Made by a program: the position numbers and the translations under genes. The notes under the pieces were generated by a model. It saw nothing but the letters and a program-made list of their open reading frames with translations. It ran no database searches and had not been told where the DNA came from. Shown piece after piece: positions 3,169-4,365 of a stretch of 64,000 bases of DNA; within the stretch, counting starts at the first letter, position 1; the number at the start of each line of letters is the position of its first letter. Origin of the DNA: Dehalococcoidia bacterium (lineage in GTDB: Bacteria; Chloroflexota; Dehalococcoidia; Lucifugimonadales; UBA3495); the NCBI GenBank assembly GCA_965197555.1, contig OZ240213.1, positions 1,194,220 through 1,258,219 of the forward strand, given 5' to 3'.

Positions 3169-4365
3169 ATGCCCCGGCTGGAAACCCTGAGTGAAGTCCA
3201 ACGGAACACCCTCCTATATTTTCCTTGTTTGGAATTTGAAACTACTCCTTGGAAGCCCCTGGCGAAGAAACTGACCGAAAGCAAGCTAGCGCTGGTTACC
3301 AGTGCAGGCCTCCACCTTCGCAGCGACAAGCCCTTCGTCACTGATGTCCAGGGCGGCGACTCGTCTTATCGGGTGATACCCAGCGACACCAAGGCCTCGG
3401 AGATCCTCCAGAGTCACGTCAGCATCGGTTTTGATCACACACCCATGTATCGGGACCTGAATATTACGTTCCCCATGGACCGGGCGAACGAGCTGGTCCA
3501 GCGGGGCGTGATCGCAGCTATTTCCAGAAATTACTATTCATTTATGGGAGCCTTGCGGGATTGCACCCGGATGATTGAAGAAACAGGGCCCGAAGTGGCG
3601 CAACACCTGCTGGACGAGGATGTGGACCTGGTCCTGTTAACCCCTACTTGACCACTTTGCACGCATGCCGTGAGTGTGCTATCGCGAGTGTTCGAAAATG
3701 CGGGGCTTACCACAATAACCCTGGCGTTGGTGCGGGAGCACGCTGGAAAAGTAAAGCCGCCCCGAGCCCTGTTCGTGCCCTTCTATTTCGGTCACACGTT
3801 GGGCCGACCGAATGATCCCGAGCTTCAGCACCGGGTGATTAGTGAAGCGCTGGAGATGCTCAAGTTCTCCCAAGGGCCGGTCCTGGCAGAGTTCCAAGAA
3901 GAAGCGGGGCCGACAAATGTTCCTCAAGCCTCCGCCGTGCAGCCATCTACAAATGGGCAGCGAGCCAACACCGCCAACGAGCTGACGGCGCTTAGACCAT
4001 TCTACGAGCGTTGGCTCGCTGCCAACGACGGGCGTACTGCCGTGGGCCTCAGCGGCATTCCTCAACGCAGATTCAGAGGCGTTGTCCGGTTCCTCGAAGC
4101 CTTCTCGGCTGATGAGACGGCCGACATGGAGGAGAGGCCGCCGGGCGTATCCCTACCCCAATTCATACGTTACTGCGTGGACGATTTGAAGGCCTTCTAT
4201 TTCGAAGCCCGCATAGTCCAAAGTCCCGATGCTGGTGAGCTAGAGGTTCACAAGTGGTTCTGGGGAGCTACGGCTGCGGGGAAGCTGGTCGCCTCAGTTG
4301 CAGACAGAATGGGCGAGATGGAAAGCCCTGAGCACAAATCGATTTCCTATGGCATCGCCCGCTGA
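3169..4365 (+). CDS. glycine/sarcosine/betaine/D-proline reductase 'selenoprotein B' family protein; in-frame TGA at 3649-3651 read as selenocysteine (U161, U-P-L-C motif)
   Basis: ORFs 3169-3651 and 3670-4365 are in the same frame (501 nt apart), and TGA 3649-3651 is the only stop between them. Read-through gives ..DLVLLTPT-U-PLCTHAVSVLSRVFENAGLTTITL.., which resembles the GrdB context around Sec (U-x-x-C ... E.AG(I/L)). RBS GAGGAG precedes ATG 3169. Confidence 0.75.
3659..3679 (+). promoter_or_regulatory. candidate bacterial SECIS hairpin for the TGA at 3649
   Basis: Stem GCACGC (3659-3664) / GTGTGC (3674-3679) includes one G-U pair. The 9-nt loop AUGCCGUGA contains GU. The loop starts 16 nt after the U of UGA. 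Confidence 0.45.

Follow-up and report, generated by a model that had tools for sequence, protein, structure and literature searches.

A UGA-interrupted gene of a Dehalococcoidia bacterium predicted to encode a selenoprotein of the marine "PrdB" family

We analyzed a 64,000-nt stretch of DNA from a Dehalococcoidia bacterium (GenBank assembly GCA_965197555.1, contig OZ240213.1, positions 1,194,220 to 1,258,219 of the forward strand; hereafter "the window"), which sits on a 4.53-Mb metagenome-assembled contig (ENA ERZ25072076, ctg246052_17x_l). Two adjacent open reading frames (ORFs) on the forward strand of the window, 3169–3651 and 3670–4365, are, as judged from sequence, one gene with an internal UGA that is predicted to be translated as selenocysteine (Sec). 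Taken as a whole, the explanation that we consider probable is that this gene encodes a soluble, two-domain protein of 398 residues with Sec at position 161, that insertion of Sec is directed by a downstream hairpin with a CGUGA loop, and that the product, a member of the marine selenoprotein family catalogued as "PrdB", would have a redox role.

Gene Structure and Conservation of the In-Frame UGA

The upstream ORF closes with TGA at 3649–3651, and the same frame is then open up to a second TGA at 4363–4365. The starts of the two ORFs are 501 nt apart, which places them in a shared frame, and the intervening 18 nt contain no stop; both points had been made in a preliminary description of this DNA and were reproduced here. 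The resulting single coding sequence (3169–4365, forward strand) comprises 398 codons, including Sec161 (3649–3651), plus the terminal TGA, and its predicted product is a ~44-kDa protein. Read-through across codon 161 gives the peptide ...VDLVLLTPT-U-PLCTHAVSVLSRVFENAGLTTITLALV... (in a longer excerpt, ...VDLVLLTPT-U-PLCTHAVSVLSRVFENAGL...; immediately around residue 161, LLTPT-U-PLCTHAVSVLSR), as previously written, with U161-P-L-C164 as the proposed Sec-x-x-Cys center. The codon for Cys164 (3658–3660), the proposed resolving Cys of this motif, is invariant three codons downstream of the UGA (82/82 sequences), and Cys164 is also kept in Cys-type homologues, where the motif reads C-x-x-C. A Shine-Dalgarno sequence (GAGGAG, 3157–3162, forward strand) can be read 6 nt upstream of the ATG at 3169; no comparable sequence was found upstream of GTG 3670 or GTG 3688, at which the apparent second ORF could begin. 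The preliminary description had anticipated that gene callers would split this gene, and the public assembly does annotate two genes here (160 aa and 225 aa). The N-terminal ORF was found to be identical on four independent contigs.

TGA is the ordinary stop codon of 19 of the 46 other genes in the window, and of the selenoprotein gene itself; because it is the most common ordinary stop in the window, we conclude that the genetic code is standard and that UGA is recoded at codon 161 only. The window contains 16 further pairs of same-frame ORFs split by a TGA, none of which presented a credible redox motif.

A protein search with the selenoprotein as query, with U replaced by C, identified eleven uninterrupted homologues of 365–418 residues (43–46% identity), as well as more than 100 closer matches (57–66% identity, one 96%) of ~230 residues that represent only the part downstream of the UGA; fragments of this kind are the usual footprint that a selenoprotein leaves in databases. 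The existence of full-length homologues supports the joining of the two ORFs into one gene, and homologues that occur consistently as two proteins split at this junction, which would have spoken for separate genes, were not what we found. When prokaryotes were scanned with one genome for each species, 553 genomes proved to contain a relative; the best 80 of these 553 belong to Dehalococcoidia/SAR202, other Chloroflexota, and Entotheonella/Tectimicrobiota, and many come from sponge metagenomes. In these best 80 genomes, tblastn matched residues 1–398 across the stop, with three matches reaching only 396 or 397.

The set used for comparison consisted of the window together with 84 loci taken from further genomes and metagenomes (85 in total; ~58–96% protein identity); fetched loci are designated L001 onward (L008 being Dehalococcoidia bacterium UBA1141) and full-length Cys-type homologues P0002–P0011. 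The codon in column 161 is TGA in all 85 sequences, never TAA or TAG; it is the sole internal stop, and the protein is conserved on both sides of it. In P0002–P0011 this column is occupied by Cys (TPTCPLCT, TPTCPFCT, or TPSCPICT, as compared to TPT-U-PLCT), which answers the check proposed in the preliminary description, namely whether homologues carry Cys or Sec at residue 161. The codon preceding the UGA (3646–3648 in the window) is ACU in 71 of the 80 sequences that encode Thr at this position (entropy 0.56 bits), and the base directly 3′ of the UGA is C in all aligned sequences; the immediate context of the UGA may therefore also be under selection.

A Conserved Hairpin Downstream of the UGA

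Alignment A2, which contains 77 distinct sequences and covers the 6 nt upstream of the UGA and continues to 66 nt past the first base of this codon, yielded one hairpin in RNAalifold, formed by columns 22–26 and 32–36 (3664–3668 and 3674–3678 in the window). All 385 of the 385 sequence-by-pair cells (5 bp in 77/77 sequences) form standard pairs, the pair 3667–3675 covaries (G-C in 45, A-U in 30, and G-U in 2 sequences), and 0 of 500 shuffles matched the observed pairing or covariation; a control in which the 3′ arm was slid was 0–63% paired. In the window, the hairpin occupies 3663–3679 (forward strand), with the loop CGUGA at 3669–3673 and a sixth closing pair, G3663–C3679, that is present in 36 of the 77 sequences, including the window. 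The distance from the UGA to the stem is 12 nt, or 11 nt if the sixth pair is counted. The G-U of the loop is invariant in A2, one clade having the loop GGUCA. At the codon level, the Val codon at +9 is frozen (GTG in 82/82; entropy 0), as is the His codon at +5 (CAC in 81/82), as compared to 1.4–1.9 bits for most other flanking Val codons and 0.9 bits for the loop Val at +7.

The hairpin tracks the UGA and not the peptide, since Cys-type genes with a similar protein sequence in this region lack it: in four of them, the corresponding 17 nt have folding energies of 0 to −2.1 kcal/mol, as compared to a mean of −7.1 kcal/mol (range −4.4 to −10.1) in the UGA-containing genes. The 3664–3668/3674–3678 hairpin can be assigned, on these comparative grounds, as the predicted selenocysteine insertion sequence (SECIS)-type signal for the UGA at codon 161. 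The preliminary description had also placed a candidate SECIS hairpin here, and its proposal of a hairpin downstream of the UGA, as well as its 3′ arm, stood, while its 5′ arm was off by 4–5 nt. The register that it gave (3659–3664/3674–3679, with a 9-nt loop) can form in the window and is 86.8% paired across the alignment, which is no better than in shuffles; two of its pairs fail to form in 18 and 43 of the 77 sequences, and it was rejected.

Family Membership and Domain Composition

The protein was matched by Pfam GRDB (PF07355) with 37.9 bits (gathering threshold 22), in an alignment of aa 21–160 to model positions 209–347 of 347 that ends at the residue before Sec. The best NCBIfam match was to the PrdB model TIGR04483, with 154.1 bits (E 3.9e-45) against an equivalog cut-off of 300; this alignment (aa 27–232 to model positions 19–219 of 238) runs across the UGA and includes U161-P-L-C164. 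A Cys homologue, P0003, scored 147.5 against the same cut-off of 300. Matches to the selenoprotein B models TIGR01918 (41.2 versus 65.45) and TIGR01917 (42.2 versus 602), to GrdH (46 versus 775), and to GrdF (44.8 versus 800) were all below their cut-offs. Because the Pfam threshold was passed and the NCBIfam cut-offs were failed, the protein is classified here as a member of the GRDB superfamily and not as a curated PrdB or GrdB. The earlier assignment to the GrdB/PrdB family can thus be kept at the level of the Pfam superfamily, with a PrdB model that aligns across the UGA, but it does not extend to the curated PrdB and GrdB cut-offs or to the partner genes of those systems.

Two domains can be distinguished. 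The PrdB/GrdB-like alpha/beta domain (aa 27–232; 3247–3864, forward strand) is supported by TIGR04483, by Pfam GRDB, and by an AlphaFold2 model of the Cys homologue P0002 (46% identical to the window protein; predicted local distance difference test score 88.7, predicted template-modelling score 0.88). In this model, the alpha/beta domain is followed by a helical bundle, and the C-x-x-C motif lies between a strand (150–154) and the start of a helix (158–173). The bundle corresponds to a C-terminal helical domain (aa 254–398; 3928–4362, forward strand), for which no match was found in Pfam or NCBIfam. A search with this domain alone against 1.84 billion representatives returned 311 matches; those long enough to provide context were either full-length proteins of ~394 residues or fragments from downstream of the UGA that end with this domain, and the rest were shorter partial sequences. 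Judged by the matches with visible context, the C-terminal domain is private to the marine "PrdB-like" family.

Selenoproteins of this kind have been catalogued in ocean metagenomes. In the 2005 Sargasso Sea selenoproteome of Zhang, Fomenko, and Gladyshev, "proline reductase PrdB" (motif UXXC) ranked third in abundance among the selenoprotein families (42 Sec forms, 1 Cys form; PMC1088965), and the 2008 Global Ocean Sampling (GOS) survey of Zhang and Gladyshev listed 235 Sec and 110 Cys forms of "PrdB" (pfam07355; PMC2398784). The supplements of these two papers hold sequences of the type VVLLTPVuPLCTRTVGTLASVLEQSGL...PPRAL...GPVL...YGRTTVG... (PMC1088965, PMC2398784). The longest catalogued GOS read is 35% identical to the window protein in an alignment of 287 residues (E 4e-51) that passes the Sec column and continues into the C-terminal domain. 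By these sequence criteria, the window gene is a member of the marine "PrdB" selenoproteins that the 2005 and 2008 surveys catalogued. Neither paper questioned the name PrdB, and the additional domain, the lack of PrdA, and the gene neighbors were not addressed in either (PMC1088965, PMC2398784); recent reviews keep the marine family under PrdB (PMC13188914, PMC9312934). Our literature search found no paper that separates the marine family from true PrdB and none on the function of GRDB-family proteins outside the clostridia.

Alternative Explanations and Weight of the Evidence

A sequencing error, a pseudogene lesion, or two true genes could each account for the annotation of two genes by the automatic pipeline. 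These explanations are excluded for practical purposes because the same TGA is kept in 85/85 independent assemblies (~58–96% identity) with no other lesions, and the finding of the identical N-terminal ORF on four contigs likewise speaks against an error. Slightly more credible, though still very improbable, is that the UGA is read as Trp, Cys, or Gly, or that it is a true stop with the downstream part made separately or not at all. The lack of visible Sec machinery in the window would agree with this, as would the shortness of the hairpin and its failure to match an Rfam SECIS model. However, homologues have Cys, which commonly replaces Sec, at this column, and the column is part of a redox C-x-x-C motif; the hairpin occurs only in UGA forms, TGA is the most common ordinary stop in the window, and no ribosome-binding site precedes the downstream part. 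In addition, one genome that carries an orthologue, Dehalococcoidia bacterium UBA1141, is catalogued in BSepDB with 49 selenoproteins (PMC13326102); this is the genome of locus L008, which has the local gene order of the window. For Entotheonella, a full Sec gene set has been reported (PMC11703216).

The alternative that deserves the most weight, although we consider it unlikely, is that the protein is a genuine D-proline reductase PrdB, which would act with a pyruvoyl subunit PrdA encoded elsewhere in the conversion of D-proline to 5-aminovalerate. TIGR04483 is the best NCBIfam match and covers most of its model with U-x-x-C at the matching site, the Cys homologues carry the name "D-proline reductase (dithiol) PrdB" at JGI, publications list the family as PrdB (PMC2398784, PMC1088965), and the presence of a gene for lipoyl-carrying GcvH beside Cys-type genes would suit a dithiol-dependent reductase. 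However, 154 bits is about half of the 300-bit cut-off, the protein carries an extra C-terminal domain of ~145 residues, no PrdA/GrdE-like partner was found by ORF clustering within ~6 kb in 83 loci, no Pfam match to PrdA, GrdE, or GrdA was found among the 56 window ORFs scanned, and the gene content of the window is that of an aerobic heterotroph. Because of the sub-cut-off score, the private domain, the lack of PrdA nearby, and the aerobic gene content, the D-proline reductase label is unsupported by present evidence, and the window protein is probably not a subunit of this enzyme.

Several observations weigh against our explanation of the locus as a Sec-encoding gene of the marine family with a redox role. 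For the hairpin, RNAalifold on the 77 sequences found no conserved lower stem; the universally conserved stem has only 5 bp and is short; no Rfam SECIS model matched, and none of the Rfam families reached its gathering threshold in the window (at a permissive E-value, 3600–3760 gave a chance ArcZ match only). The G-C/A-U switch in the covarying pair is tied to an Ala/Thr replacement and may represent few evolutionary events. Folded as a single sequence, 3640–3720 has no exceptional stability (z = −0.83); support for the hairpin comes from comparison and not from thermodynamics. As for the insertion machinery, selA, selB, and selD were not found among the 56 ORFs scanned with Pfam in the window, which also contains no tRNA genes and hence no tRNA-Sec; no tRNA-Sec was found in 60 related loci either. 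Searches of solved structures found nothing resembling either domain and gave no help in assigning a function: the best match by sequence (E 0.1) was a local CxxC resemblance to the Pyrococcus furiosus protein disulfide oxidoreductase, and the P0002 model had no match by fold at E ≤ 0.001 (best template-modelling score ~0.28). With regard to function, no universal neighbor was found across the 83 clustered loci, the candidate redox partner of the window gene (a CCG protein, described below) lies beside only 3 of 84 Sec-type loci (window included), and tblastn detected GcvH neither in the window nor in the other Sec-type loci. The functional part of the explanation, covering partner and substrate, is its weak part.

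Gene Neighborhood

The local gene order in the window, which is also found in L008, is FAA-hydrolase, luciferase-like monooxygenase, selenoprotein, and CCG protein. The CCG gene (4471–6522, forward strand) starts 105 nt downstream of the selenoprotein gene, with the same offset in L008 (7336–9357) and L016 (7305–9329), and no terminator or promoter motif was found between the two genes. It encodes a predicted membrane-anchored protein of 683 residues with two [4Fe-4S] sites and two CCG domains (Pfam CCG and Fer4), two CxxCxxCxxxC motifs, and ~5 predicted transmembrane helices (with a faint QmoC-like match), and is a possible redox partner; the public assembly calls a product of 606 residues, from which the first helix would be absent. 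All NCBIfam matches of the CCG protein were far below threshold (DsrK, 56 versus 400; TfrB, 178 versus 385; also GlpC and HdrB).

The luciferase-like monooxygenase ORF upstream of the selenoprotein gene (1649–3046, forward strand; 465 aa from GTG 1649) overlaps the convergent FAA-hydrolase gene (1040–1846, reverse strand) by ~200 nt. The first residue of its Pfam match is 138, and the product annotated in the public assembly has 336 residues (~2036–3046), so the true start is probably downstream of 1649. A second luciferase-like monooxygenase is encoded at 38010–39293, consistent with SAR202-type gene content.

Among the Cys-type relatives, a genuine gene for the glycine-cleavage H-protein (GcvH) lies downstream on the same strand in three of five loci (L085, 8199–8600; L086, 8192–8584; L088, 6646–7041), at a spacing of 8–10 nt in two and with a single gene in between in one. 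The two GcvH proteins from Cys-type loci that were scanned passed the cut-off of TIGR00527 and have the lipoyl-lysine motif intact. Because tblastn was negative in the Sec-type loci, this link is confined to the Cys-type relatives. The other flanks of the GcvH-linked loci carry differing genes for aromatic or amide catabolism, and no other glycine-cleavage genes were seen beside these GcvH genes.

A class-III-like Zn-dependent alcohol dehydrogenase (e.g., L001, 4310–5410), which resembles NDMA-dependent enzymes (TIGR03989, 390 bits, below the cut-off of 440), is encoded upstream of the selenoprotein gene in 47 loci, directly and on the same strand in 25 and at a distance of 1–1.6 kb in 22; it does not adjoin the selenoprotein gene of the window. 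The dehydrogenase is 77–100% identical among loci, as compared to ~60% for the selenoprotein, and a similar dehydrogenase was seen near the Cys-type gene P0010.

Elsewhere in the window, an F-type ATP synthase operon (10629–17451, reverse strand), in which the a, b, delta, alpha, gamma, and beta subunits were identified, and a Mo-hydroxylase (29611–31872) were found. Together with the monooxygenases, these genes point to a predicted lifestyle of respiring heterotroph rather than Stickland fermenter.

Genes related to other selenoprotein families were also observed. L002 carries, on a 2-Mb contig and ~4.5 kb from its PrdB-like gene, a 95-residue gene with a Pfam UGSC domain (11229–11516, reverse strand); UGSC is another abundant marine selenoprotein family. 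The window itself contains an uninterrupted CMD/AhpD-like ORF (PF02627; 28947–29534, reverse strand), AhpD-like proteins being a family with Sec-containing (CxxU) members in marine catalogues.

Proposed Function and Significance

In the mechanism that we propose, the N-terminal PrdB/GrdB-like domain carries U161-P-L-C164 where a helix begins, the selenolate of U161 would attack an oxidized or electrophilic substrate, and Cys164 would resolve the adduct to give a selenenyl-sulfide; the U161/Cys164 center would then be regenerated by a disulfide-reducing partner. In the lineage of the window, this partner would likely be the co-directional, membrane-anchored CCG/Fe-S protein (DsrMK/HdrED-like) encoded at 4471–6522, and in the Cys-type relatives it may be lipoylated GcvH. 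Cycling of the U/C-x-x-C center with re-reduction by a partner would fit these neighbors, since the CCG protein and GcvH both handle dithiol/disulfide chemistry.

A broader possibility, which we put forward as tentative and rather doubtful, is that the marine "PrdB" selenoproteins are separate, stand-alone selenol/thiol oxidoreductases of aerobic heterotrophs (SAR202/Dehalococcoidia, Entotheonella, and others) that use lineage-specific partners, i.e., a quinol-linked DsrMK/HdrED-like Fe-S protein in the lineage of the window and lipoyl-GcvH in the Cys-type relatives. If so, a PrdB-like domain combined with a private helical domain would act outside proline reduction.

The split of this gene into "hypothetical" fragments, in the public assembly as well as in more than 100 database entries, hides the active site, and the corrected gene model adds a predicted selenoprotein to a Dehalococcoidia-type genome. 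The family is among the most abundant selenoproteins of ocean metagenomes, yet it carries the name of an enzyme for which the evidence assembled here gives no support. The neighborhoods of its members offer candidate partners, including the CCG/Fe-S membrane protein, lipoyl GcvH, and the class-III-like alcohol dehydrogenase.

Comparison with Known Systems

The SECIS of Escherichia coli fdhF is a hairpin within the coding sequence just past the UGA, whose stem follows the UGA by ~11 nt and whose apical loop contains a G-U. The hairpin described here is similar in its UGA-to-stem spacing and in its loop G-U, and the loop GGUCA of one clade resembles the GGUC of fdhF; it differs in that only 5–6 bp are conserved, without a conserved lower stem or a bulged U. 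The candidate partner encoded at 4471–6522 shares a membrane module, two [4Fe-4S] sites, and two CCG domains with the quinol:disulfide oxidoreductases DsrMK and HdrED, but these modules are fused in one polypeptide in the window, and the link to the selenoprotein consists of synteny in three genomes.

With GrdB, GrdF, and GrdH, the window protein shares the Pfam GRDB superfamily, and its matches to their models cover the C-terminal half (positions ~209–431) and cross the Sec site. The window protein lacks the N-terminal ~200 residues of GrdB, however, and there is no grdA or grdE nearby; furthermore, while the GrdB motif is U-x-x-C-x-x-C (PMC13188914), the window protein reads U-P-L-C-T-H-A, without the third Cys. 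The motif listed for PrdB is UxxC (PMC2398784, PMC9312934), and the window protein is homologous to PrdB of Clostridium sticklandii and Clostridioides difficile in an alpha/beta domain that spans nearly the whole PrdB model, with U-x-x-C at the matching site. Unlike clostridial PrdB, the 398-residue window protein extends ~145 residues beyond the 238-position model at its C-terminus, its gene is not accompanied nearby by prdA (encoding the pyruvoyl subunit), prdC, or other prd genes, and its hosts look like aerobic heterotrophs.

The closest likeness is to the marine "PrdB" family. The active site reads ..VVLLTPVuPLCTRTV.. in the catalogued sequences and ..LVLLTPTuPLCTHAV.. in the window, and PPRAL, GPVL, and the C-terminal extension are common to both. 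Since a Sec-containing family with this extension has been known for about twenty years, the selenoprotein itself is not new in kind; the window gene falls within a branch of the family from Dehalococcoidia/SAR202 and Entotheonella, with ~60% identity inside the branch and 35% identity to the surface-ocean read.

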